In this document: piece by piece, positions 6,527-20,000 of the stretch
Numbering within the stretch: position 1 is the first letter of the stretch
Layout of the letters: each line of letters starts with the position of its first letter
Virus record (IMG/VR): IMGVR_UViG_3300022562_000410
DNA from: an uncultured virus (IMG/VR IMGVR_UViG_3300022562_000410)
Lineage: Duplodnaviria > Heunggongvirae > Uroviricota > Caudoviricetes
Reading direction: 5' to 3' (one strand)
Length of the DNA: 20,000 bases
Notes under the pieces: generated by a model
What the model saw: the letters and a program-made list of their open reading frames with translations, nothing else
Databases searched by the model: none
Told to the model about the DNA's origin: nothing
Position numbers and translations under genes: made by a program

Positions 6527-7300
6527 ATGGGCGCTCTTTCTTCTAAGTTCACAGCTTATATAACAGATGATGCGACCATCGGGGATGCTGACATCAAGGG
6601 TGGCAAGATCGGCTATGGCACTGACGGAAAGCACGTCGGCACCATGCTGGCTGAGGACCCTTATTGGGCTAACGTGGTGTTCCTGCTTCCCTGTCGGACT
6701 GTTGCTCCATTCTGGTGGTATGCAAGCAGCGGTGGGCCGCTGTACGGTGGGTTTGATACAACGTCACCCAAGTTCGGGAATGTGAGCTATTACGCAGACG
6801 GCAGTGGCGATGTCCTGTTTGCAACGCTACCTGCCTTGGGTACTGGTGATTTTACTATCGAGACGTGGCTGTGGCCGATCACTGGTGGGGCTGGAAGTAA
6901 TTATGGCCGCATCTTTCAGATTGGTCCAAACAGCACCGCTGGTGGCTTATTTCTTGTCAGGAACAATGCGCCTAATCCACTGAGCTTTCTGTGCCAGTTC
7001 TGTTACACCTCATCGTATACAACATTGTTCAGCCCCGGCACGACGATCCCCAATACCACATGGGCGCATATCGCAATGGTCCGGGCCAGCGGTGTATTGA
7101 GCTTTTACGTGAGCGGGACGAGGGTCTATACCGGGACTCCAAGTACTTTCAACATCACGCAGACGTTGCTTTGTCTTGGTGCTAATAACTCTGCCGCTGA
7201 GAGCTTTAATGGCAAGTTCAACAACCTTCGCATCACGACCGCAGCGCGATACTCGGGGGCCACCCTGACCTTACCCACAGAAGAGTTCCCGACTTATTAG
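6527..7300 (+). CDS. LamG-like / concanavalin A-like jelly-roll virion protein (257 aa)
   Basis: Hallmark motifs DPYWANVVFLL, KFG..SYYADGSGD, GTGDFTIETW, WAHIAMVRASGVLSFYVSG and FNGKFNNLRIT..ARY...PTEEF. Confidence 0.85.
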   Translation: MGALSSKFTAYITDDATIGDADIKGGKIGYGTDGKHVGTMLAEDPYWANVVFLLPCRTVAPFWWYASSGGPLYGGFDTTSPKFGNVSYYADGSGDVLFATLPALGTGDFTIETWLWPITGGAGSNYGRIFQIGPNSTAGGLFLVRNNAPNPLSFLCQFCYTSSYTTLFSPGTTIPNTTWAHIAMVRASGVLSFYVSGTRVYTGTPSTFNITQTLLCLGANNSAAESFNGKFNNLRITTAARYSGATLTLPTEEFPTY

Positions 7301-8080: not shown

Positions 8081-8545
8081 GTGACAGATCATAATGACGC
8101 AGCAAAGGAAGGCCGACAGATTCCGTGGAAGCCGGTGTCGATAGCAGGGATCATCACACTGATGGTGGCTATAGTTCCGATACACGATAGAGTGTACGAC
8201 TCCCGCTATGTCCGAACGGATCGTGACAGTTTCGAGAAGGTTCACAAGGAATTCGCCCTAAAAGATCAGGTGCTCACTGTCAGTGAAGCGATGCCCATCA
8301 AGGAGCAGGTCGCCAAGATCGATCGGAACTCCTCCCAGAACACAGAAAAACTCGATACGCTACTTATCTCATCGGCGATCCAGTTGGCGATTTCCGCCGA
8401 GGATCGCTACGAGCGATTGAGCAATACACCAACAGCCTCGGAACAGGACGTACACGACGCCAAGGCTACAATGATCAAAGCCCAGCGATACCGGGATTGC
8501 TTGTTGGATCGACAACCCAACTGTCAGGCCTTAAGGGTCTGGTAA
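8081..8545 (+). CDS. Single-pass membrane protein with coiled-coil domain, first gene of the lysis cassette (154 aa)
   Basis: GTG start with GGAGG at 8071-8075; hydrophobic PVSIAGIITLMVAIVPI; helical C-terminal domain with two Cys near the end; TAATG-coupled to the endolysin. Confidence 0.7.
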   Translation: MTDHNDAAKEGRQIPWKPVSIAGIITLMVAIVPIHDRVYDSRYVRTDRDSFEKVHKEFALKDQVLTVSEAMPIKEQVAKIDRNSSQNTEKLDTLLISSAIQLAISAEDRYERLSNTPTASEQDVHDAKATMIKAQRYRDCLLDRQPNCQALRVW

Positions 8546-8952
8546 TGAGTCTCGGGGCACGTCAGGAAGAGTTCATGGAGCTGGTGCCACGCTTGCTAGA
8601 CAAGGTCCATGAGCTGGGTTTCAGAATCCGTGGGGGTAGCCTCTTCCGTGATCCACGCCTGCATGGCCAGAAAGGGCATCCAGACGTGATGACATGGCTG
8701 GAGACCAACTTCCCTGAGGCCTTCACCGCCGCAGAGGCGGCAGGGTATCGTGGCTACGGCTCACGAGTCTCGCTGCACAAAGACAAGTGCGCCATTGACC
8801 TGAATCTGTTTCTTGACGGCCAGCCAGTGACGGGTACTGACGAGCACGCTCCCATTGGCGCATGGTGGGAAGAACAAAACCCGCTGTGTCGGTGGGGTGG
8901 TCGCTTCAACGACGGCAATCACTACGAATATCTCGCTGAGCCGTGGCGATGA
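8545..8952 (+). CDS. Endolysin, peptidase M15 family (L-Ala-D-Glu peptidase-like), 135 aa
   Basis: Start reassigned to ATG 8545 (TAATG overlap). Zn-ligand motifs SLH-x6-D (SLHKDKCAIDL) and WGGRF-x-DGNH, plus upstream R (FRDPR). Confidence 0.9.
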   Translation: MSLGARQEEFMELVPRLLDKVHELGFRIRGGSLFRDPRLHGQKGHPDVMTWLETNFPEAFTAAEAAGYRGYGSRVSLHKDKCAIDLNLFLDGQPVTGTDEHAPIGAWWEEQNPLCRWGGRFNDGNHYEYLAEPWR

Positions 8953-9194
8953 AGGCCGCATTCACCGCCTTCGGCAGGTTTATCGAGAAACTGGTTGAGC
9001 AGCACAAACTGGTGCGCCGTGGGCTGGTTGTTTGGATCGTGGTTGAGATCACATGGGTAGTCGACCGGGTCTTCACCAGCCCGCACGAGATTACAGCGCC
9101 GGAGGCTACTGCATTTGGTGTGCTGACCGGCTTGTTGACATTGGTCCTCGGGTTTTACCAACGAACGAGGAGCAAGGAGGACGGGGATAAGTGA
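8949..9194 (+). CDS. Putative holin (two transmembrane helices)
   Basis: ATGA overlap with the endolysin stop; hydrophobic GLVVWIVVEITWVV and AFGVLTGLLTLVLGFY; charged tail QRTRSKEDGDK; sits between endolysin and spanins. Confidence 0.7.
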   Translation: MKAAFTAFGRFIEKLVEQHKLVRRGLVVWIVVEITWVVDRVFTSPHEITAPEATAFGVLTGLLTLVLGFYQRTRSKEDGDK

Positions 9195-9607
9195 GCGCTT
9201 TGGATTTAGCTAAAGGTCTGCTGGGCAAGGCCAACCCCTACGCGATCTACATCAAGTGGGGCGCGATCTTCGCAGTGGCCTTACTGGCTTTCTTCTATGT
9301 GCGGGGTGCTGAGCAAGCCAAGGCTGACGTAATCACCCTGTCAAGTGATTTAGATGAAGCGCAGGCGAACACACGCAAGAATCAAGAAGCCTTCGAAACC
9401 TGTTCCGCTGCCAATGAAGCGAACCGGGCGGAGGCCGAGCGCCAGCGGCACTTAGTCATGGTGGCTGAGGCCCGGATAGAGATGATGCGGCGACAAGCCG
9501 ATATCAAAGTAGAGGATATAAACCATGAGGTGGGAACCTTCCGTAGCGCTGGGCTTGAGTGCCCTGCTCTCACTGATGATTTTCGTCAGTGGGTGCGCGG
9601 CTCCTAA
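9191..9607 (+). CDS. Inner-membrane spanin (Rz-like i-spanin)
   Basis: GTG start after GGAGGACGGGGA; N-terminal TM WGAIFAVALLAFFYV followed by an Ala/Glu/Arg-rich coiled coil; 3' end overlaps a lipoprotein gene. Confidence 0.8.
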   Translation: MSALDLAKGLLGKANPYAIYIKWGAIFAVALLAFFYVRGAEQAKADVITLSSDLDEAQANTRKNQEAFETCSAANEANRAEAERQRHLVMVAEARIEMMRRQADIKVEDINHEVGTFRSAGLECPALTDDFRQWVRGS

Positions 9608-9839
9608 GCCGATAACCGTCTACGAAACCAAGGAGGTCGTGCGGGACCGGTATGTCCCTATCGACCCCTCCTTGACCGCCCCGGTGGATATAATCACCTT
9701 GTCGGAGGACTTCGATCTGTACGCACTGGGGGCGGCGTACAAGGCCCAGAGAGTTCGTGCCGAACAGTGCAACGGCCAGCTTGCGGAGATCGCCAAGCTG
9801 GGCAATTCAATGAAACGAGAGGACCAATTCCATGAATAG
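9525..9839 (+). CDS. Outer-membrane lipoprotein spanin (Rz1-like o-spanin)
   Basis: AGAGGA RBS at 9511-9516; signal peptide with lipobox VSG-C (Cys24); Pro-containing region then CNGQLAEI; overlaps the i-spanin by 83 nt in another frame. Confidence 0.85.
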   Translation: MRWEPSVALGLSALLSLMIFVSGCAAPKPITVYETKEVVRDRYVPIDPSLTAPVDIITLSEDFDLYALGAAYKAQRVRAEQCNGQLAEIAKLGNSMKREDQFHE

Positions 9840-10390: not shown

Positions 10391-11278
10391 ATGAGTGGTC
10401 TAGTCAATTCGGTCAAGAAGGTCTTCAAGAAGGCGACCAACTTCGTGAAGAAATACTGGAAGCCAATTCTTGCAGCCGTCGCCATTTACTTCACGGCAGG
10501 GGTGGCCCTGTCCTACTTTGGGAGTACCGCTGGCTTTGCCAGCAGCTTACCGGGGTTCGGAACAGGGGGCCTATTCAGCAAGGCTGCTGTCTGGATGGGC
10601 TTCAACGGGACGGCAGGCAGCGGACTCTTCAACACTGCGGTGGCTGCGGGCAAGATCGCCCCAGCCATCGCCACAACCGCTAACACTACGGGCGTGCTCG
10701 CGGCGGATACCGGAGCGATCGGCGCAGGTGGTAGCAGTGGTGGCCTGTTTGTCAACCCAGTGACGGGCGAGGCTGGGGCCAAGGCTTCCGCTTCCATGCT
10801 GGCTGGCGGAGGCGGGGCTGCTGCCGGGGGTGGTGGTGGCGCACTGGTCGCGCAGCAGGCCACCCAGTCCGCAACCGAAAGCGCACTGGTCAAGGCGCTG
10901 GAAACCCAGACCAAGCTCAGCATGGTCAAGATGGGAATCGACACGGTGTCCGGCCTGTTGGCTCCTGATCCGTACGAAGAGGCCCGCAAGATGCACGATC
11001 TGCAATACGCCTCTTCTTTCGGCGTAGACCGGCAGGGCAATGATACCTTTGGCTGGGGTAAGAGCGACAGCGCGGCTGGCTGGGCCAACATGAATAAACG
11101 ACAGTCCGGGTTTGGTTCCAATGTGGGCTACGGAATGTCGTCCGACCAGAGCCAGTTCCGTGAAGCCCAGTTCGTGCCAACCCAGCACGAGCAGAACAAC
11201 CCATATGGTCAGATGAAGCCACAGCAACCACCCGGACAGCCTGCCTTTGTGCAGCCGAGCATGAACCGGAGAGCGTAA
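10391..11278 (+). CDS. Putative DNA-ejection/pilot internal virion protein (295 aa)
   Basis: AGGGA RBS; Lys-rich amphipathic N-terminus, hydrophobic helix, long Gly/Ala tracts and Gln/Pro tail. This architecture resembles podovirus small ejection proteins (P22 gp7-like by analogy only). Confidence 0.6.
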   Translation: MSGLVNSVKKVFKKATNFVKKYWKPILAAVAIYFTAGVALSYFGSTAGFASSLPGFGTGGLFSKAAVWMGFNGTAGSGLFNTAVAAGKIAPAIATTANTTGVLAADTGAIGAGGSSGGLFVNPVTGEAGAKASASMLAGGGGAAAGGGGGALVAQQATQSATESALVKALETQTKLSMVKMGIDTVSGLLAPDPYEEARKMHDLQYASSFGVDRQGNDTFGWGKSDSAAGWANMNKRQSGFGSNVGYGMSSDQSQFREAQFVPTQHEQNNPYGQMKPQQPPGQPAFVQPSMNRRA

Positions 11279-12105
11279 TGCCAGAGTTCATTCCCCAAGG
11301 ACAGGCCCCTCAGGGGCAAGGTGGGCAGGAGATGGTGGCCCCAGCTCCCGCCCAATTCCTCTCGCCTCAGCAATCCGCCCAGATGGCCCAGACCGGCATG
11401 CAGGCGCAGGGTCAGCCACAGGCCCCTCCGGGCGCTCCGGTGGGGGCTGGCATGGGTGCGACGCAGGAGGACCCGTTCAACGCGCCCGAGGAGCCAGCAA
11501 CAGACGAAGAGGAGCAGCAGTTCGAGGACCTGTTCATCCGTACCATTGCCGCCGTCAATGACAACCGCAAGCCACCGAAGGGTCGGCGCTCGCTGGCTGA
11601 TGAGGTGGTCAGGCAGTTGTCGCAGAAAGGCAAGGAGGCCTACATCGTCATCGGCGATACAGCAGGCCTGATCATGACCCAGATGGTGGATAACGCGAAG
11701 CGTCAGGGGGTGCAGTACGAAGGCTCGGTCGTCATGCAGGCTGGCATGGGCCTTATCGGTGAGTTGATCAAGATTGCCCGTATGTCCGGCGCGATCAAGA
11801 ACCTACCAGAAGAGGATTCGGAAGAGGAGCAAAAGCTGGTTGAGCTGGCCGCGTTGCAGGGATCGAAGTATTTCGGTGAGTATCAGCTCTCCACCGGGCA
11901 GGCTGATCAGATGGGGCATCGCAAGGAGCTGGACGAGCAGATGCAGCGCGAGGCTGACTCAGGGCAGCTCGATGACTGGGGCATGGAGCAGATGAGCCCC
12001 GACATCCGGGCCTCTCTGATGCAACAGATCGGCGGAGGTGGTGGGCAGGGGCCGCAGCCATCGCCGCAGCCACAGGCCCCACAGGGAATGCAGGGAGCAC
12101 GCTGA
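11278..12105 (+). CDS. Putative internal virion protein (275 aa), Gln/Pro/Gly-rich termini with helical core
   Basis: TAATG coupling and GGAG RBS; low-complexity ends; lies within the ejection-like cluster. Confidence 0.6.
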   Translation: MPEFIPQGQAPQGQGGQEMVAPAPAQFLSPQQSAQMAQTGMQAQGQPQAPPGAPVGAGMGATQEDPFNAPEEPATDEEEQQFEDLFIRTIAAVNDNRKPPKGRRSLADEVVRQLSQKGKEAYIVIGDTAGLIMTQMVDNAKRQGVQYEGSVVMQAGMGLIGELIKIARMSGAIKNLPEEDSEEEQKLVELAALQGSKYFGEYQLSTGQADQMGHRKELDEQMQREADSGQLDDWGMEQMSPDIRASLMQQIGGGGGQGPQPSPQPQAPQGMQGAR

Positions 12106-12106
12106 C

Positions 12107-13255
12107 ATGGGTCTGAACTGGTACGGTGGCGCTCAGGGCGCGTCAAAGGGTCTGGAGACCTTGCTTGGTGTTCAGTCAAAGAATATCGACATGCTCTACG
12201 ATCAGGTAACGCGAGAGAATCACGATCGCTTTGCCTCCGCCGAGGCCGAGAAGCAACGACAGTTTGTGAAGGAACAGGCCGACACCGAGTGGAGTCGGAA
12301 GATGCCGCTCGAATACGGCAAGCTGAACCTGCAGGGACAGCAGATCGAAGCCACTAATAAGTTGCAGCAGGCTCAGCTTGAGGCGACCACGGCGTACCAG
12401 AACGCCAACATTGGCATTCAGCAGCAGCGCAATGAGATGACCGGTCTGGCCAATGCCGCCACCGCCGAGTCCAGACGAGCGACTAATGCCCGCGAGCAGG
12501 CAGCGGATGATCAGAAGACACTGGATGCGATCAACGAGAAGATCGCTGCAGCCGAAAAGGACATTGTGTCTACCCCAGAACAGCGCCAGTCCGACATCAA
12601 CTATTGGAAGGAGCAGCGCCAGCTCGTAACGGAATACGGGGCCGATGGTGCGATGGACTTCACCAAGATACAGAGCATCATGGCTGGCCACCCACAGACC
12701 GAGTACTACGGGCGGGCCTATGCCCTGATGAAACCCGAGGAGCGGCGGAACGTGGACCGGGAGGCTCTGCGCCTTCAGAGAGACAAGAAGGCGGATGGCC
12801 GTCGCCAAGCCTACGCCATGGCGATCGACGCTGTGATGGGAGAAGGGGAGGCCCAGACCCCTGCCAAAGAGGAGAAACCGCCTCAGAATCGATCTGAGGG
12901 GCAGGGGCAGGCCACTCCAAAGGCTGAGACACCTGAAAAAAAGACTCAGCCCCAATTCACTGATCTTCCCGCGAAACCTCCGGGCTATGATTTCTCGGCT
13001 GAGAAGGGGATGACCCGTGAACAGCGAATCGCTGCCCAGAACACTGCGGCAGTGGCGACCAGTAAGTACAAGAAGGCCACCAAGGCGCAGGTTGAGGCGC
13101 TGGCCAAGGAGCTGGCCAAGAAGGACGGTTTTCAGATGTGGGGCATGCTGTTCCGTGGTCAGCGGAACAAGTACCTTGAGATGGCTCAGGAACAGATCGA
13201 CAAAGCTCCTCGCGAGGACACGAGGTTTATCGCTGCTAGTGGTGGGTCGAAATAG
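12107..13255 (+). CDS. Putative ejection/internal virion protein, coiled-coil (382 aa)
   Basis: Start reassigned to ATG 12107 (AGGGAG at 12092-12097, 1 nt after the upstream stop). Gly-rich start MGLNWYGGAQGASKGL, then long Q/E/A/K helices. Confidence 0.65.
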   Translation: MGLNWYGGAQGASKGLETLLGVQSKNIDMLYDQVTRENHDRFASAEAEKQRQFVKEQADTEWSRKMPLEYGKLNLQGQQIEATNKLQQAQLEATTAYQNANIGIQQQRNEMTGLANAATAESRRATNAREQAADDQKTLDAINEKIAAAEKDIVSTPEQRQSDINYWKEQRQLVTEYGADGAMDFTKIQSIMAGHPQTEYYGRAYALMKPEERRNVDREALRLQRDKKADGRRQAYAMAIDAVMGEGEAQTPAKEEKPPQNRSEGQGQATPKAETPEKKTQPQFTDLPAKPPGYDFSAEKGMTREQRIAAQNTAAVATSKYKKATKAQVEALAKELAKKDGFQMWGMLFRGQRNKYLEMAQEQIDKAPREDTRFIAASGGSK

Positions 13256-13289: not shown

Positions 13290-16200
13290 ATGGACAAGGA
13301 TTATTCGTCGTTTGCGGAAGATAAAACCTATACGCAGGAAACGGAAGCTCCACCTTTAACCGCATCAGCAGCGCTAGAGATACCAGAATCAAGCGACTAT
13401 TACTCGTCGTTTTCTAGCGATATCGACTATACCAAGGGCCCCGAACCAGCTCAGGGTGCGCCGGGAGAAGAACCCTCTTTCCTGAAGAACCTCGTCGCTG
13501 AGTGGGGTGTTGGTTCCGGTCAGCTCGCTCAAGGTATCGGGCAACTGATGGACGACTGGCTCGGATGGAAGAGCGGAGCTGAATTCGTCCGCAACGCAGG
13601 GCAGCGAGCCGAGGAGTACTGGAAAGGCTCGATCCCCGAGGACGAGTGGAACCGGATCGAGAAGGAGACTCAGAAGAACTTTATGACCCTCAAGGACGAG
13701 GGCGACTGGTGGAACCCCATGGACTGGGAGCGGGGCGACATGGGTCTCGAAGGCTTGCTCTATATGGGCATGCAGTCCATGCCAGCCACGGTGGCCACCA
13801 TGCCGATCGCCGGACTTGGTGGTAAGTTGGGGATGGCTGCGATCAGCAAGATACCGGGCGTATCCAAGCTGATAACCACTTCTAAGGTCGGAAAACTAGC
13901 TGAGGCGGCTGGCGGATCGGCGGAAGCGATCAAGGCCGGGAAGCGGGCCGATAAGATTCTAAACCGGATTCAGGGAACCCTCATGGGCACTACCTATGGT
14001 GGCGCTGAGGGCGCGATTTCGGCTGGCCAGACGGGCTACCAAATCAATCAGCAGGTTGACAACATGCGGTTCGAGGACCTGCTGTTGAAAAGTGACTATG
14101 CCCGGAACGTATACGAGGCCCACATCGCCGAGGGTATGGACCCTGAGGAGGCGGCGAACCAGACACGGGAAATGGTCAAGGAGAAGGCCAGATCAGACGC
14201 CATGTGGAAGACCATGGTCACCACAAGCGCTCTGGGCGCTCCCATGGGCATGTTCTTCTCCTCCGTGCTGCTCAGGACACCATGGGCTAAGGCTTTCGCT
14301 TCCGGCAAGGTGGCTGGATTGGTTGAGGGCGCAGCAGGTGAGGCCGCACAGGAGACTTTGCAATCGGCCTTTGAGCAGTATTGGCAGAACGAGGCGACAC
14401 AGAAGTATGCGGACAAGACGATCAAGCTCTCCGATGGTGTGTTCGAGGCTGCTCTCACAGGTGGTATTGTCGGCGGTGTTCTGGGTGGCGCTTTCGGCGT
14501 GGCTGGTACGCCAACTAAGGCTCAGGCCCAGAGGGAAGAAACCCGCACCCAGAACCTGAAGGACAACCTGAAGGTTGAGGTGCATTCACGACTGGCCGCT
14601 TCTAGTCTGATGCAGAACTATGGCAAGACGCCAGAGCAGGCTACTGAGATTATCACCCCGATTATGCAGCGCTACTCGGAAACCAGAAATCTGGTTGAGG
14701 CGGCTGCTGACCTGAAGTTCCTTGAGATGACAGGTCGTACTCGTGAGCGTGGCCTTGATAATGTTGGGCAGGCCCAGCCGGATTACGGCGACCTCGATGT
14801 CAGTGTTGAAGAGGAGGCTGGGCAGGAGCGCAACGGCCACACCCTGAAGTACCCAGCCGGGAAGATCAACGGCACGGTCGGCGCTGACGGCATGAACGTC
14901 GATATCGTTGGTCCGGGCACCGGCAATCGCATCTACATCGCCGAGAAGTTGGCCCCTGATGGTACCTTCGAGCAGCACAAGGTCCTGTATGGCTTCGAAA
15001 ATGAAGAGCAGGCCATGGATGCGTTCTACAGCACATGGGGCCGGGACGACGCCGACAACCTCGGCAACCTGACTGAGGTTAACAATCAGGAGCTGAACGA
15101 CGCTCTGGCCCGCTGGACACGTGACTATGGAACTGAACTGGGACCAGCCACCGATGAGCCGCTGACGCCAGAAGAGGACCTCGCGCTTCGCAAGGATGAA
15201 GACTTGCAGGTTGGCATCGAGGATGTCCAGTCCCAGCTTGATTATGTACAGAACGAGGACGGCTCTTACCCGACCGAAGCTGAGCCTCTGCTCAACCGCC
15301 TGAAGGTGCTACAGGAAGAGAAACAGCGCCGGATCAACTCTGGTGAGTGGCAGCAAGAAGCGGGCGTGGAACAGCCCGTGGAACAAGGTGAACAGGGTTC
15401 CCAGCCAGAGGGCGAAAATCAAGCAACCACACAGGTTTCAGAGGAAGCTCCACGTGGAACAGAAGGGGGTGAAACACCACTCAGCCTGCGCGAGGGTGGC
15501 CGTACCATGCGCGGGCCATACCCGGAGCGGATACGGCCTTCCGAGGCTGCTGGTGCTGGTGAGAGGGCGGTCGATGTCGATTTCTTGCATCTCTCTCGCG
15601 AACCTGATCTGCAGGTATTGAAGGGCGAGAAGGCTAGCACCTCCGCCGTCCGGCGTACGCGAGCCAAGGTGGGTCGTGAAGCCACTGCCAATCGAGTTTA
15701 CATCTACGCCCAGCAAGAGAAGGCGATGGGTGGCCGTTCTGTTAGTGGCAATGAGTCCGTTGTCTCTCGGGCCTCGGATCAGGTCTACAGCGGGACCGCT
15801 ACCAACCTGTACGACTTTGATGCTGATCCGCTGAACCTGCTGCAGGGGGCAAAGATGCCCTCTGAAAGCATGGAAGCCGCCATCCTCAAGGCGGGTTACG
15901 ACGGTTGGTACTACGAGAAGTTCCCGAAAATACATGGCGGCATGGGCGTCATCCTCAACAAGGATGTGGCGGCGATGTATCACGGTCGCGCCCAGAAGGT
16001 TAAGGAGCTGTTGCGCGAGCCGAGCATGTTCCAACATCTGGTCGCGTGGGAAACCATCCCCGGCAGTGCCTCCCCATTTGCCGCAGCCACCTCTCTGCTG
16101 ACCCCGGCAGAAGCTCAGGTGCTGAACGAGAAGCTGCTGCTCGGCGTGGTGATCCAGAAAGACCTCCGTAGTGATATGCTGGCCTCGGCCATGGGACTTC

Positions 16201-19200
16201 CATCGCGGCTGCTGTTACAGCGCTGGGGCGGATATTCCGGTAAGGTCATGCCGTCGATGCAGGTTGGTCTTGACAGCGCCCTGCAAGCCAACCTGTATTC
16301 GGCGGCGATTAAGCTGATCTACCAGCAGGATGCCGTGCCATGGATGCATGCCACGCCCAAGGGGGACAGGGACGGCATCGAAATCGAGCTGGACAGAACA
16401 CCGACCCAGAAGCAGCTCGAAGCCTTCCAGCGTGAACTTGAGAAAAATCTCGGGCAGTTTGTTGGGTTCACGGTCATGCCGGATGGCAGGATCATGGTCG
16501 GGAACTACGATGAGAATGTATCCAGAGCGCAGTTTGTAGCGCGAGTGGATCGCTCGGCAGCAGTGCTTCCAAGTGGTACAATGACCTCCTTCAAGTTCGA
16601 GGGCGCGTATCGTGACGAAAGCCAGCAAGAAACTAAAGAACTTGCGCTACGCTGGGCAAGCGAAGCCGGATCACCGAATCTACAAGAGTGGATTTCAACT
16701 GCTCAGGCCCGTGCGGCAAAGGCCGCAGGGGAATTCTTCAGCTCCCTCCCAAGAAGCCACGCCGCCCGCCAAGCCTACGAAAACTCAGCAGTAACCCCGC
16801 TCAGCCTGCTGCCGGAGGAGTTCCAGCTCACTCCTCCCGACGAAGAGGCTGAGGCCGAATACAAGGACCCATTCTATTCAGCCCTTCTCCGAACGGTGGA
16901 GGAGGGTTCGCAGCGTGGTATGCCAAAGAAGGGAGCCAAGGCCATCAAGGAATGGCTGCTTGCTGCCCAGAGGAAAGGTCTGTTCAAGAAGGAGGAGTAC
17001 GACTGGCTGGACCTTGATCGTGTGTTCGAGGATTACAGCGAGGTCGGCGCTCCCGAAATGAAGCGTCAGGACCTACTCGATTACGTTAAGAGAAATCAGG
17101 TCAGGATTGAGGACTCCTTTGCTGGTGCGCCAGACCGTGCAGCGTTCCGTCCTTACGATATAGCCCTCGGTGATCTGCTGGATTACATCTATACCCTCAG
17201 TGCCACCAGCGGGATCAATGAGAGCGCCCTGAAGATGTGGGCCAACGGCACTGACGTCGGGGGCATAGAAGCTATCCCAGAGCATCAGCGTAATGAGCTG
17301 CTGAGGCGTCATGAAAAGTTCATCCAGCTTGAGGCGCAGTCCATCGAGCGCGGCCTCAAGACGGATCGACCGGCAACCAAGTATGAGGAATACAGTCTGG
17401 CCGGTGGTCGGAATGCTCGCGAACTACTACTGGTTGTCCCCGGTATTGGTGAGTGGGGCGATGGGCATATATGGAATCAGGACGGTCGAAAGCGGGCGGT
17501 TGTTCATGTCCGATTCAACGACCGGATCAACAGCGAGGGTGGGCGTACGCTGTTTATCGAGGAGGTGCAGTCAGACCGCCATCAGGCCGGGCGCAAGGAA
17601 GGGTATCAGGCTCCTGATTTGAGCCGGAAGAATAGGGCGCTCAGGGAGCAGTTGACGCGAGTTGGTCGAGGTATCGACAAGATTGTTAAGGAGAACAACA
17701 ATCTTGGATTTGATAACTCAGCAGAAGCGCAACTTTCACTTGTTTCGAGAATGAGGCATGTGGGACGTGGTGAAGGCATTAGGTTGCACAATACAGTCTT
17801 CGGGTTTGAGCTGAACACTACCGAAGAAGCCGCGCAACTTGGAGACCTGTTATGGGAAGCCAAGCGCCTTCGCCGCCTCCTTGATGATGTGGAATCCCAG
17901 CAGCGTATAGGCGTTCCACCAACGCCCTTTATGAAGACCCAGACATGGGCCATGGTGGCGATGAAGCGCATGATCCGTTACGCCGCTGAGAACGGCTACG
18001 ATGCCGTGGCATGGACGCCGGGAGATGTTCAGAATGAACGCTATGGATTAGAGCGCTCGATAGATGCCATTAGATATAAGCCAACGGAAGGGTATCTCTA
18101 CATCGAGTACTCCAATGGCAATGAGGATGTGGAGGAGCTTAGCGCGACCGAGATAGAAGAAGGAATGGGCATTGCAGGGCAGGTGCCAGAATGGATGCGG
18201 ATTGAGATGTCCAGCAGCATAGATCAAGCTCACCAAGATGCTGAATATTATTACGAACCAACCCTTCTCAAAGACACAGACTATATCGGCGAGGTGGCTG
18301 ATCAACAAGGATTTGACCAAGAAGATTATGAGCCGGAAGGCTACGTCATCATCAACAATAGTGGGGACGTCGAGCGCACGTATGATGGTCAGATCGAGTG
18401 GTTTGAGGATGAGGAGGAGGCTCGCAAATGGGCGCTGGAAAAGGTCGAAGCGTCTGATGACGGTTTAATCATCTGGGGTGACGAGGAAGACAAGGTCGGT
18501 GGTGAAGGGATGCGCGGCTTCTATGATGACATCCTCGTCAACGAGGTGCAGAAGTTCGTCAAGAAATGGGGCGCTCAGGTAAGACCGTTCGGTACCGCCA
18601 TCGACACCGAGGAAACCTTCGGAGATGAGATCGCCGGGGATATCAGCGATGAGGCGCTGAGGGTGGCTTTCGAAGAGAACCAGACGGTAGATATGGAAGG
18701 CAACGCATGGGGGTTGTCCTTTGAAGGGCCGGAGGGGGTACATCTGCTCAAGATGACGCCTGACTTGGTGGAGGCCGCGATGGGCGGTTTCCCGCTGTTT
18801 TCTCTGGGGCCGGACGCTAAACCCAGCGATCAGGCCCGCGCTCGCGAGCACGCAGAACGCCTCTATAACCGCCCCGACTGGACCGTGATCAACAAGGAGG
18901 TTGATGCCTCCGTGGCTGGAGCCGTCACACCTGAAGAGATTCAGGACGCCATGGAAGAGTTCACGCTCATGGGCACCATGAGCCGGTACTTCCGCAAGTG
19001 GTTCGGCAACTCCCAGACGGTGGACGCCTTCGGCCAGCCGATCGTTTTTTATCATGGCAGTGGCGAGGGCATGATTGGTCGATTCCTGCCTAATCAGAGG
19101 GGTCAAATCTTCGTTTCCACCAACCCGGCCTTTGCTGGCGCATTCGCCGAGGTAAACTCTATGACCTATGGCTGGTCGGTGGACGAAGAGGACCCCAATT

Positions 19201-20000
19201 ACACTCGCGCAGCTCCGACCATCTACCCTCTGTATGTTCGGGCCAACAAGATATTTGACTTCCGTAACAAAGCGATCCGGCGCAGCTATTCCCGCTGGCT
19301 GCAACAGAACAACATCTACTCAGGAACCCGGCTGAATCAGGAACTGGCCAACGTTCAGAACGGCGATTGGGAGACGATCGAGAGGGGCGCTGTTCAGGCC
19401 TTCATCAAGGAGCGTGGCTACGATGCGTTCTACCTGATGGAGCAGGGGTCTCTGAACCTTGGCTTGTTCGATCCCAGAAACATCAAGTCGGCAGTGGGGA
19501 ACGCCGGGACCTTCCTGAATGGCACCGCAGACATGCTGCTGTCACTGGACCCGAACGAGGTGGGTAACGAGCTGAGCCGTCGCCTTAATCTGTACCAGTT
19601 GCTGGCTCATCTGCAGAAGACCACCACTGCCGATTCCACCTTGAAGGCGGTGCGGGCGCACATCAATGAAGGACTGGATAAGGGCCTGTTCGATCGTCGC
19701 GCCCTGAAGGCCCTGTCCGGCAAGGAAAATAGCGGAGCTGAGATCATACGAAAGATTAAGGCCTCGATCCGTGCCGGTGCCCCGATCACTGCGCGAACAG
19801 CGCTGTCACGCACGGTGGTCAACAACGAGGTCAACCGCATCATTCAGCAGGAAGGCTGGCAGAATCCACCTGAGTTCGAGGTGGTGACTGACCATCGTGG
19901 CCTGCCGCCGCATATCCGGGCTGAAGTCGAGCGCTACGGTTATGAGCGCCGGGTCGAGGGCTGCGTCGATCCGTTTACCGGCAAGGTCTATCTCGTATCC
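13290..20000 (+). CDS. Giant polyvalent virion-associated protein (>2237 aa, 3'-truncated by the window)
   Basis: Manual translation from ATG 13290 (preceded by GGGACAGG) finds no stop through 20000 (MDKDYSSF...GKVYLVS). Absent from the ORF track. Contains InPase-, ART- and MPTase-like motifs typical of phage polyvalent proteins. Confidence 0.93.
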   Translation, partial: MDKDYSSFAEDKTYTQETEAPPLTASAALEIPESSDYYSSFSSDIDYTKGPEPAQGAPGEEPSFLKNLVAEWGVGSGQLAQGIGQLMDDWLGWKSGAEFVRNAGQRAEEYWKGSIPEDEWNRIEKETQKNFMTLKDEGDWWNPMDWERGDMGLEGLLYMGMQSMPATVATMPIAGLGGKLGMAAISKIPGVSKLITTSKVGKLAEAAGGSAEAIKAGKRADKILNRIQGTLMGTTYGGAEGAISAGQTGYQINQQVDNMRFEDLLLKSDYARNVYEAHIAEGMDPEEAANQTREMVKEKARSDAMWKTMVTTSALGAPMGMFFSSVLLRTPWAKAFASGKVAGLVEGAAGEAAQETLQSAFEQYWQNEATQKYADKTIKLSDGVFEAALTGGIVGGVLGGAFGVAGTPTKAQAQREETRTQNLKDNLKVEVHSRLAASSLMQNYGKTPEQATEIITPIMQRYSETRNLVEAAADLKFLEMTGRTRERGLDNVGQAQPDYGDLDVSVEEEAGQERNGHTLKYPAGKINGTVGADGMNVDIVGPGTGNRIYIAEKLAPDGTFEQHKVLYGFENEEQAMDAFYSTWGRDDADNLGNLTEVNNQELNDALARWTRDYGTELGPATDEPLTPEEDLALRKDEDLQVGIEDVQSQLDYVQNEDGSYPTEAEPLLNRLKVLQEEKQRRINSGEWQQEAGVEQPVEQGEQGSQPEGENQATTQVSEEAPRGTEGGETPLSLREGGRTMRGPYPERIRPSEAAGAGERAVDVDFLHLSREPDLQVLKGEKASTSAVRRTRAKVGREATANRVYIYAQQEKAMGGRSVSGNESVVSRASDQVYSGTATNLYDFDADPLNLLQGAKMPSESMEAAILKAGYDGWYYEKFPKIHGGMGVILNKDVAAMYHGRAQKVKELLREPSMFQHLVAWETIPGSASPFAAATSLLTPAEAQVLNEKLLLGVVIQKDLRSDMLASAMGLPSRLLLQRWGGYSGKVMPSMQVGLDSALQANLYSAAIKLIYQQDAVPWMHATPKGDRDGIEIELDRTPTQKQLEAFQRELEKNLGQFVGFTVMPDGRIMVGNYDENVSRAQFVARVDRSAAVLPSGTMTSFKFEGAYRDESQQETKELALRWASEAGSPNLQEWISTAQARAAKAAGEFFSSLPRSHAARQAYENSAVTPLSLLPEEFQLTPPDEEAEAEYKDPFYSALLRTVEEGSQRGMPKKGAKAIKEWLLAAQRKGLFKKEEYDWLDLDRVFEDYSEVGAPEMKRQDLLDYVKRNQVRIEDSFAGAPDRAAFRPYDIALGDLLDYIYTLSATSGINESALKMWANGTDVGGIEAIPEHQRNELLRRHEKFIQLEAQSIERGLKTDRPATKYEEYSLAGGRNARELLLVVPGIGEWGDGHIWNQDGRKRAVVHVRFNDRINSEGGRTLFIEEVQSDRHQAGRKEGYQAPDLSRKNRALREQLTRVGRGIDKIVKENNNLGFDNSAEAQLSLVSRMRHVGRGEGIRLHNTVFGFELNTTEEAAQLGDLLWEAKRLRRLLDDVESQQRIGVPPTPFMKTQTWAMVAMKRMIRYAAENGYDAVAWTPGDVQNERYGLERSIDAIRYKPTEGYLYIEYSNGNEDVEELSATEIEEGMGIAGQVPEWMRIEMSSSIDQAHQDAEYYYEPTLLKDTDYIGEVADQQGFDQEDYEPEGYVIINNSGDVERTYDGQIEWFEDEEEARKWALEKVEASDDGLIIWGDEEDKVGGEGMRGFYDDILVNEVQKFVKKWGAQVRPFGTAIDTEETFGDEIAGDISDEALRVAFEENQTVDMEGNAWGLSFEGPEGVHLLKMTPDLVEAAMGGFPLFSLGPDAKPSDQARAREHAERLYNRPDWTVINKEVDASVAGAVTPEEIQDAMEEFTLMGTMSRYFRKWFGNSQTVDAFGQPIVFYHGSGEGMIGRFLPNQRGQIFVSTNPAFAGAFAEVNSMTYGWSVDEEDPNYTRAAPTIYPLYVRANKIFDFRNKAIRRSYSRWLQQNNIYSGTRLNQELANVQNGDWETIERGAVQAFIKERGYDAFYLMEQGSLNLGLFDPRNIKSAVGNAGTFLNGTADMLLSLDPNEVGNELSRRLNLYQLLAHLQKTTTADSTLKAVRAHINEGLDKGLFDRRALKALSGKENSGAEIIRKIKASIRAGAPITARTALSRTVVNNEVNRIIQQEGWQNPPEFEVVTDHRGLPPHIRAEVERYGYERRVEGCVDPFTGKVYLVS
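14781..15120 (+). other. Domain: inorganic pyrophosphatase-like (InPase), degenerate
   Basis: LDVSVEEEAGQER...KYPAGKINGTVGADGMNVDIVG...FEQHKVLYGFENEEQAMDAF...LGNLTEV follows the polyvalent-protein InPase pattern. Confidence 0.8.
15570..15970 (+). other. Domain: divergent ADP-ribosyltransferase-like
   Basis: FLHLS...RVYIY...NLYDFDADPL...EAAILKAGYDGWYY...GVIL; motif order parallels the ART domain at 18987-19547. Confidence 0.5.
16869..18806 (+). other. Domain: 'FYS...EVQSD...GYDAVAW...GMRGFYD' domain of phage polyvalent proteins, with insertions
   Basis: PFYSAL (16869), VHVRFNDR, LFIEEVQSDRHQAGRKEGY (17550), KRMIRYAAENGYDAVAWTPG (17964), GMRGFYD (18507), ending GFPLFS. Confidence 0.65.
18987..19547 (+). 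other. Domain: ART-PolyVal ADP-ribosyltransferase
   Basis: FRKWFGNSQTVDAFGQPIVFYHGS...IFVS...A..FA...IYPLYV...GYDAFYLME...FDPRNIKSAVGNAGTF closely follows the family signature. Confidence 0.88.
19800..20000 (+). other. Domain: probable N-terminal half of a zincin-like metallopeptidase (MPTase)
   Basis: W...PEFEVVTDHRGLP...VEGCVDPFTGKVYLVS matches the strands that precede the HExxxH/HExxH helix in polyvalent-protein peptidases; the catalytic motif lies outside the window. Confidence 0.6.

Follow-up and report, generated by a model that had tools for sequence, protein, structure and literature searches.

How are the borders between the many domains of a giant phage protein marked, and is the protein cut at these borders? 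This question is raised by a stretch of 20,000 nucleotides (hereafter, the window) from the uncultured virus IMGVR_UViG_3300022562_000410 (Caudoviricetes; IMG/VR), which ends in one long open reading frame (ORF) on the plus strand (13290..20000) encoding a putative polyvalent, ejection-type virion protein, P0001. According to the ORF list and the translation, 2236 residues of P0001 are visible and the 3' end is open; its relatives are much longer than this visible part (3964+ to 4555 amino acids). The initial annotation had noticed short [L/F]-S-L strings at domain boundaries of this protein and had read them as recognition sites of a metallopeptidase encoded in the same chain; all six strings that it listed are where it placed them, in the frame of the ORF. 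We found that these strings represent real, selected marks of module ends (hereafter, tags), of which one or two residues vary from lineage to lineage but are common to unrelated modules of the same protein, and that [LF]SL as written is specific to a small lineage around P0001.

Two Pfam domains were matched in P0001, both above cut-off: InPase (PF18823; residues 496-606, 14775..15107; 52.1 bits compared to a cut-off of 26.8) and ART-PolyVal (PF18760; residues 1912-2075, 19023-19514; 43.1 bits compared to 31.2), the latter lying within a segment that also comprises a pre-ART region and a tail (18843..19544). Homology adds the 'EVQSD' module (residues 1192-1837, 16863..18800), which extends from P-F-Y-S-A-L to G-F-P-L-F, as well as the N-terminal half of a zincin-like (HExxxH-type), metallopeptidase (MPTase)-like module (residues 2089-2236, 19554..20000). 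With at least two unrelated effector domains on one polypeptide of a phage, P0001 fits the definition of a polyvalent protein given by Iyer et al. 2017 (PMC5512222). Of the domain labels in the initial annotation, InPase and ART-PolyVal thus stand, whereas its 'first ART-like domain' (~760-895) lacks a Pfam match. The latter corresponds to domain A, which together with domain B (~916-1165) occupies 15567..16784. Neither belongs to a named family (Pfam is blank here), and a search with them returned 27 matches in 1.84 billion representatives, with P0100 and P0101 as the best.

Four tags close modules within this string of domains. Tag 1, ETPLSLR (residues 728-734 with LSL at 731-733; 15471..15491), lies behind an acidic linker (residues 607-727, 15108..15470) that follows InPase and is poorly conserved, with large insertions and deletions relative to the related proteins P0222 and P0100. 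Tag 2, VTPLSLL (residues 1168-1174 with LSL at 1171-1173; 16791..16811), closes domain B, tag 3, GFPLFSLG (residues 1833-1840 with FSL at 1837-1839; 18786..18809), closes EVQSD, and tag 4, DMLLSLD (residues 2081-2087 with LSL at 2084-2086; 19530..19550), closes ART-PolyVal. The module ends were set independently by homology, which in 98 proteins spans 1195-1837 (EVQSD) and ~1896-2085 (ART-PolyVal) with sharp edges: alignment ends of homologues outside the closest kin pile up at 1837 (36 ends) and 2084 (6 ends), and 79 such alignments start within 45 residues downstream of 1171. When the pattern was widened to [LFMY]SL, 4 of the 6 occurrences in P0001 coincided with these module ends. The other two (1368 and 1482) are internal, with YSL at 1368, which the initial annotation did not list, sitting in the conserved EVQSD core K-x-x-x-Y-[ST]-L-x-G-G, and QLSL (residues 1481-1484, 17730..17741) sitting in a variable EVQSD insertion without conservation in 71 aligned rows, just as that annotation had cautioned. 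Its suggestion that PSMFQ (residues 911-915, 16020..16034) is a variant of the motif had to be abandoned: the string falls within the conserved N-terminal portion of domain B, homologues consisting of B only begin just downstream, and FQ is lost in the closest relatives, which read PSMHE, PTMRK, and PSMQR.

The three closest relatives that were found are P0222 (4282 amino acids; 44% identity to P0001 over 2366 columns), P0100 (4555 amino acids; 37%, 32%, 33%, and 34% identity in four segments), and the ORF of IMG/VR locus L001 (P0229, >3964 amino acids). A search of viral contigs for further kin gave none with a single-protein query and one locus, L001 itself, with alignment A3, and none were found in metagenome contigs or genome contigs. 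Equivalent module ends in these three proteins carry a hydrophobic residue followed by S-L, which confirms the placement of the motif at module junctions. The end of the InPase linker, ETPLSL in P0001, reads ETPLSLREGG in P0222, PPMSLAEGE in P0100, and PPLSLVSRE in L001; the end of domain B, TPLSL in P0001, reads TPFSV in P0222 and has no equivalent in P0100 and L001, which are without the module inserted there. EVQSD ends in PLFSL in P0001, in ALFSL in P0222, and in SPYSL and FPLSL in both P0100 and L001, and ART-PolyVal ends in LLSL in P0001, VFSL in P0222, and VYSL in P0100 and L001. Furthermore, the next module in the relatives ends in VPFSL, MVYSL, or MVFAL. The tags of P0222 are located at 793 (LSL), 1228 (FSV), 1929, 2201, and 2503 (FSL each), and 2831 (FSV). 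Across the 4555 residues of P0100, [LFMY]SL occurs at module ends in 4 out of 4 cases (794, 1576, 2054, and 3629); since this total is not above expectation (4 compared to 3.7), the signal is positional. In L001, 5 of 6 occurrences are at module ends, including the end of the MPTase-like module (2298), and the sixth (2768) is within the conserved EEVQSD core. As a separate observation, the linker between InPase and domain A of P0100 holds a small DUF2188-like insert (757-790; weak, E 0.004) that is absent from P0001, with the PPMSL tag directly after it.

The hydrophobic-S-L string has been kept in P0222, P0100, and L001 at an overall identity of 32-44%, whereas the adjoining linkers diverge. 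Moreover, the motif Ser is encoded by AGC, AGC, TCT, and TCA in the window and by TCA, TCC, AGC, TCG, and TCC in L001, and, since these codons stem from both Ser codon families, the likeness of the tags reflects no recent copying of DNA. Taken together, conservation and mixed codons bear out the selection at the protein level that the initial annotation had proposed. The TP codons of the two TPLSL copies differ as it stated (ACA CCA compared to ACC CCG), but their LSL codons are identical (CTC AGC CTG). The proposal of cassette-like domain swapping was likewise corroborated, as the module order varies among the relatives with breakpoints exactly at tags. The MPTase-like module follows ART (...LLSL) in P0001, and ART also in P0222, but it follows EVQSD (...PYSL) in P0100 and L001. 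Similarly, the EVQSD module of P0001 and P0222 is flanked by TP[LF]S[LV] and [PA]LFSL, and P0100 and L001 join domain B straight to the pre-ART region.

Other lineages carry other tags. In three proteins, [FYH]-A-L is found at the ends of EVQSD, ART tails, and another module (4/4 occurrences in P0051, 5/6 in P0017, and 5/6 in P0009), while P0060 contains FAL three times in junction-like contexts and P0121 has [FY]-[KR]-L behind both of its ART tails. In P0096, EVQSD ends in FSL and YSL stands directly ahead of an EVQSD-type start, and the protein contains two further [FYL]SL. Many proteins show F-Q behind the EVQSD module and [FY]-Q behind ART. The residue after the aromatic one was the same at the EVQSD end and at the ART tail in 18 of 26 proteins, compared to 7.5 expected (P < 1e-4, permutation); this test used one first EVQSD end and one first ART tail per protein and scored P0008, which has six mixed ART tails, as a mismatch. 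With close kin thinned, the agreement amounted to 12 of 20 proteins (5.7 expected, P 0.0017), and to 11 of 19 (P 0.003).

What the tags are made of can be seen from the ends of EVQSD and ART-PolyVal. EVQSD is a widespread family unnamed in Pfam (98 long and 95 shorter homologues, with stand-alone forms of ~560-780 amino acids), whose invariant residues include H219, H232, R234, E251, Q253, S254, and D255. GFPLFSL overlies its C-terminal conserved element I-T-P-x-M-R-x(5-6)-G-x-P-[LM]-F, of which G659, P661, and L662 are invariant or nearly so in alignment A1. The position of S1838 is occupied by Q in 18 of 32 aligned rows (S 3, R 3, K 2, D 2, N 2, E 1, A 1), and the following position is L in 3 of the 32. 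DMLLSL, in turn, overlies the ART-PolyVal tail G-T-F-D-P-x-x-P-x-I-[LR]-[FY]-[SQ...] (40 non-identical tails; 42 with a wider pattern). At tags 3 and 4, the conserved core in most homologues is therefore the preceding P-L-F or I-L-[FY] rather than S-L. In an AlphaFold2 (AF2) model of EVQSD (676 residues, 50 sequences; predicted local distance difference test (pLDDT) 69), which shows a long helical hairpin among its large insertions, G-F-P-L-F closes a C-terminal strand-helix-strand with a pLDDT of 89-95 up to fragment residue 660 and of 67 thereafter. Foldseek placed GNAT acetyltransferases best for this model (E 0.017), and VIA gave NatD (4ua3_B, Z 9.7, root-mean-square deviation (rmsd) 3.4, 132 aligned), AtaT (Z 9.5), TacT2 (Z 9.5), and many other GNATs (Z 8.3-9.3), with alignments extending to model residues 648-668. 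One EVQSD homologue, P0136, has a precomputed PF00583. The module is thus predicted to have a GNAT-like fold, and the extent of the GNAT alignments together with the position of G-F-P-L-F at the end of the confidently modeled part suggests that P-L-F is structural and that S-L lies at the exit of the fold. In stand-alone EVQSD proteins (e.g., P0157 and P0147), conserved tails after P-L-F become acidic at the end, AATPAGLGLLGSEEE and QALPAIPATGLLATQDENR, and this acidic tail is a second short motif.

With respect to the peptidase, the claim of the initial annotation that P0001 itself encodes a metallopeptidase is partly sustained: residues 2089-2236 match the first half of a zincin-like module of L001 (38% identity, E 1e-28) that is also present in P0100 and P0222, but the segment with the catalytic helix is outside the window, and the closest relatives have EExxxH. 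No HExxH or HExxxH is present in the visible 2236 residues. The L001 module is linked to members that bear the motif, namely P0096 (HEIVGHFG, E 3e-9), P0121 (2e-9), and P0111 (8e-6), and distant members carry HExxxH[FYH]G in versions such as HEIVGHFG, HEHIGHLG, HEAVAHYG, and others. An iterated hidden Markov model (HMM) detected the module in 20 proteins out of 229. Across 14 aligned modules, four residues do not vary, namely the Glu and the second His of the motif, a Glu further on, and an Ala, and HExxxH is complete in 11 of the 14; a candidate third metal ligand, E100 (invariant together with A103 in alignment A4), is kept in the closest kin as well as in distant members. This form matches the HEXXXH MPTases that Iyer et al. 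2017 mention (PMC5512222).

These observations suggest the following mechanism. P0001 consists of an N-terminal ejection-type domain and a string of InPase, two unnamed domains, the GNAT-like EVQSD module, ART-PolyVal, and the zincin-like peptidase module. [L/F]-S-L is the local form of an end tag closing each module, in which the hydrophobic or aromatic residue would belong to the last structural element of the module (as is seen for EVQSD) and is followed by one or two lineage-specific residues, S-L here and A-L, [KR]-L, or Q elsewhere. The peptidase encoded in cis would then cleave the chain inside the capsid or once it has been ejected, thereby freeing the effectors. Zincins generally prefer a hydrophobic P1' residue, and the cut is therefore predicted between the Ser and the Leu of the tag. 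As each module has its own tag, modules can be inserted, lost, or reordered at these places, and the relatives do show rearrangements of this kind. Cleavage at the tags is plausible on the basis of sequence comparison, and we consider putative processing sites that are cut by a zincin-type peptidase encoded in cis to be the best single explanation of the tags, if somewhat short of an even bet. Delivery of P0001 along with the DNA, as a component of the virion, is a candidate scenario by analogy. Its N-terminal domain (residues 1-471, 13290..14702; 37-55% identity in P0100 and P0222) includes a part (residues 195-471, 13872-14702) that resembles the N-terminal part of N4-like virion RNA polymerases (vRNAPs; phrog_2206, E 3.8e-18), and LPD38-type relatives from other phages are borne in virions.

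However, a number of observations weigh against such processing. In the three closest relatives, HExxxH is replaced by EExxxH (P0222 at 2366, P0100 at 2222, and L001 at 2159), which means either that the peptidase is inactivated or that Glu serves as a ligand of a zincin, and the catalytic helix of P0001 itself is expected ~20-30 residues beyond base 20000. The MPTase-like module had no match in Pfam, PDB sequences, or the protein atlas, nor did Foldseek return a match at E <= 0.001 for an AF2 model of the L001 module (pLDDT 75). VIA ranked the catalytic domain of anthrax lethal factor best for this model (Z 4.3, rmsd 4.6, 102 aligned), followed by PPEP-2/3 and PprI (Z 3.0-3.2), all of which are below the meaningful level. 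Two junctions, between the N-terminal domain and InPase and between domains A and B, are without a tag. Furthermore, the agreement between module ends is weaker for the dipeptide (3 compared to 0.75 expected, P 0.03; 2 compared to 0.62, P 0.12, when one SL protein is kept). Since shared ancestry remains in the tests of tag agreement and of tag and peptidase type, the number of independent tag changes (SL, AL, KL, Q, and S) is small, and the EVQSD-core tree is too poorly resolved for counting them (4 of 23 inner branches starred).

Nearly as likely, and to be reckoned with seriously, is that the tags are real but uncut, serving either as a structural end-cap (a last strand plus a hydrophobic staple) or as a docking motif for a phage or host partner, e.g., for capsid packing or tail passage; their agreement would then stem from duplication of modules together with their tails and from adaptation to one partner. 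This reading accounts well for G-x-P-L-F being part of the high-confidence C-terminal strand-helix-strand and of the segment reached by the GNAT alignments. It is also in line with stand-alone EVQSD proteins, which keep P-L-F and a short conserved tail (42 of 137 non-redundant ends are <60 residues from the C-terminus), so that P-L-F serves the structure whether or not a polyprotein is involved. The missing first His of the peptidase motif in the closest kin points the same way, as does the remark of Iyer et al. 2017 (PMC5512222) that N4 vRNAP, ArdC, and TraC1 are delivered in uncut form despite their MPTase domains. A structural cap, however, leaves unexplained why the exposed residues after the aromatic one agree between unrelated folds and vary by lineage, and why F-Q ends stand ~30 residues ahead of HExxH; for docking, of which a clamp-binding or SSB-tail-like motif was considered as one form, no partner is known.

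A further point in favor of processing is that the type of end tag goes with the type of peptidase. The relation between F-Q and HExxH was apparent in the 40 F-Q ends with at least 220 residues downstream: HExxH occurs within 220 residues in 27 of these (chance 0.067 per 220-residue window), compared to 10 of 45 for other end types, and it is located 26-49 residues after the F-Q end in 24 of the 40. The consensus reads PLF-Q-x(6-10)-RGRITL-x(10)-LF-x(4)-ST-x(2)-HE-x-GH. In P0020, P0032, P0033, P0047, P0139, and others, the segment with HExxH after PLF-Q resembles an MPTase fused right behind EVQSD, and it is absent from precomputed Pfam lists. Of 11 x-L ends, 4 belong to proteins that also contain an HExxxH-type module, compared to 8 of 126 other ends; three of the four are kin. 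On the other hand, HExxxH-type modules also accompany other end types, and no such module was found by HMM and regular expressions in proteins of the AL lineage, which contain only one HETVH. That polyvalent proteins in general are polyproteins with a lineage-specific junction code co-evolving with the clade of the cis zincin, F-Q going with an HExxH module that starts ~10 residues after the tag and hydrophobic-[S/A/K]-Leu with an HExxxH-type or other module, is a tentative extension that we regard as possible but doubtful.

That the tags are a chance product, i.e., a short Leu- and Ser-rich string falling near four boundaries of one protein, is improbable. The count of the motif, when taken alone, is within chance. 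[LF]SL occurs 5 times in P0001 compared to 1.06 expected (P 0.006, 2000 shuffles), a value for a pattern that was picked after inspection of the sequence; among all tripeptides of P0001, LSL ranks no higher than 26th in extremeness, with ~14 equally extreme ones in shuffled copies of the protein, and 6 repeated 5-mers, TPLSL among them, compare to 2.6 expected. In 98 long distant homologues (276,056 residues), [LF]SL is not enriched (129 compared to 130 expected). The two internal copies at 1368 and 1482 fit chance as well. The position of the motif, however, goes beyond chance: tags stand at equivalent places in P0222, P0100, and L001, where linkers are not kept, all four copies in P0100 are at module ends, and a parallel A-L tag exists in another lineage, by which this explanation is largely refuted.

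Least probable, and in our view unlikely, are recombination junctions at the DNA level, i.e., short shared sequences that promote module exchange without a role in the protein, as the differing module order with breakpoints at tags and a 10-base run common to the two TPLSL copies would suggest, but the Ser codons vary in the window and in L001, what is conserved are amino acids, and 33-base segments around the tags are only 39-61% identical, too little and too short for homologous exchange. A DNA repeat or gene conversion as the source of the tags was ruled out by the differing codons.

Several known systems provide context. In 2017, Iyer, Burroughs, Anand, de Souza, and Aravind (PMC5512222) put forward that polyvalent proteins of phages and conjugative elements are autoprocessed by their MPTase domains, and P0001 resembles the proteins described there in having many effector domains per chain (InPase and ART-PolyVal, as well as LPD38 in its kin) and a zincin-like MPTase, including the HEXXXH form. 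It differs in the lineage-specific end tag that is common to unrelated modules and goes with the kind of peptidase module present. The relevant passages of that paper name no cleavage-site or junction motif, although its supplementary alignments may show these tails, and a junction tag for polyvalent proteins was not found in the literature searched. By description, P0001 is also similar to two large LPD38-type proteins, gp47 of phage phi24B (bioRxiv 10.64898/2026.04.10.717836) and the Bcep22-like gp69 ('DarB-like') of phage JC1 (PMC9144972). Both are giant multidomain proteins that mass spectrometry detected in virions and for which ejection has been proposed, and LPD38 likewise stands at the end of the proteins related to P0001; the passages describing these two proteins report no processing.

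Few phage genes are as large and as poorly understood as those of polyvalent proteins, the cutting of which has been a matter of proposal since 2017, as have the sites. With a junction tag that is legible in the sequence, exact and testable predictions of cleavage sites become possible; the tag also shows annotators the boundaries of effectors in ORFs of 2000-5000 codons and suggests how new modules are fitted in. Should the tag follow the type of peptidase, protease and site would have co-evolved inside a single gene, and if the junction code holds, the boundaries of mature effectors would be predictable across many uncultured phages, with modules exchangeable as tag-delimited cassettes. Many packaged or ejected proteins of T4 and of phiKZ/SPN3US-type phages share a short motif at which they are cleaved, ahead of head maturation or in the course of it, by T4 gp21 and the corresponding prohead proteases. 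In contrast to P0001, the protease in those systems is a separate prohead protease and the motif differs; PHROGs named no separate prohead protease among 19 ORFs of the rest of the incomplete 47.9-kb contig, 11 of these ORFs being without match. In picornaviruses, the 3C protease, encoded in cis, cuts the polyprotein at a recurrent junction motif and releases separate enzymes. To this, P0001 would be comparable only by analogy, and only if the tags are indeed cut, as it belongs to a DNA phage and has a zincin-like metallopeptidase module unrelated to 3C.

The window otherwise contains phage-type genes, with tail-fibre-like proteins, an Rz-like spanin, and Gly/Gln-rich proteins preceding the long ORF from 13290. 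Genes for portal, major head protein, tail proteins, and a RusA-like resolvase are found on the remainder of the 47.9-kb contig. This contig is truncated within the giant ORF, at window base 19826, and the window continues for another 174 bases (19827-20000); a search by exact 50-base match for an extension of the ORF past base 20000 gave no match in viral or metagenome contigs. Directly upstream of the giant ORF, at 10391-13255, three ORFs encode Gly-, Gln-, and Ala-rich proteins without family match, which are positioned like internal virion or ejection proteins. A likely lysis cassette is located at 8081-9839, in which the ORF at 9525-9839 matches the Rz-like spanin (phrog_456, E 1.3e-4) and the ORFs at 8081-8545, 8497-8952, and 9191-9607 have no family match. 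Finally, a 257-amino-acid protein encoded at 6527-7300, adjoining the tail-fibre-like ORFs, is similar to the C-terminal regions of numerous large tail, baseplate, or virion proteins (phrog_3545, E 1e-21) and resembles a receptor-binding-type domain.

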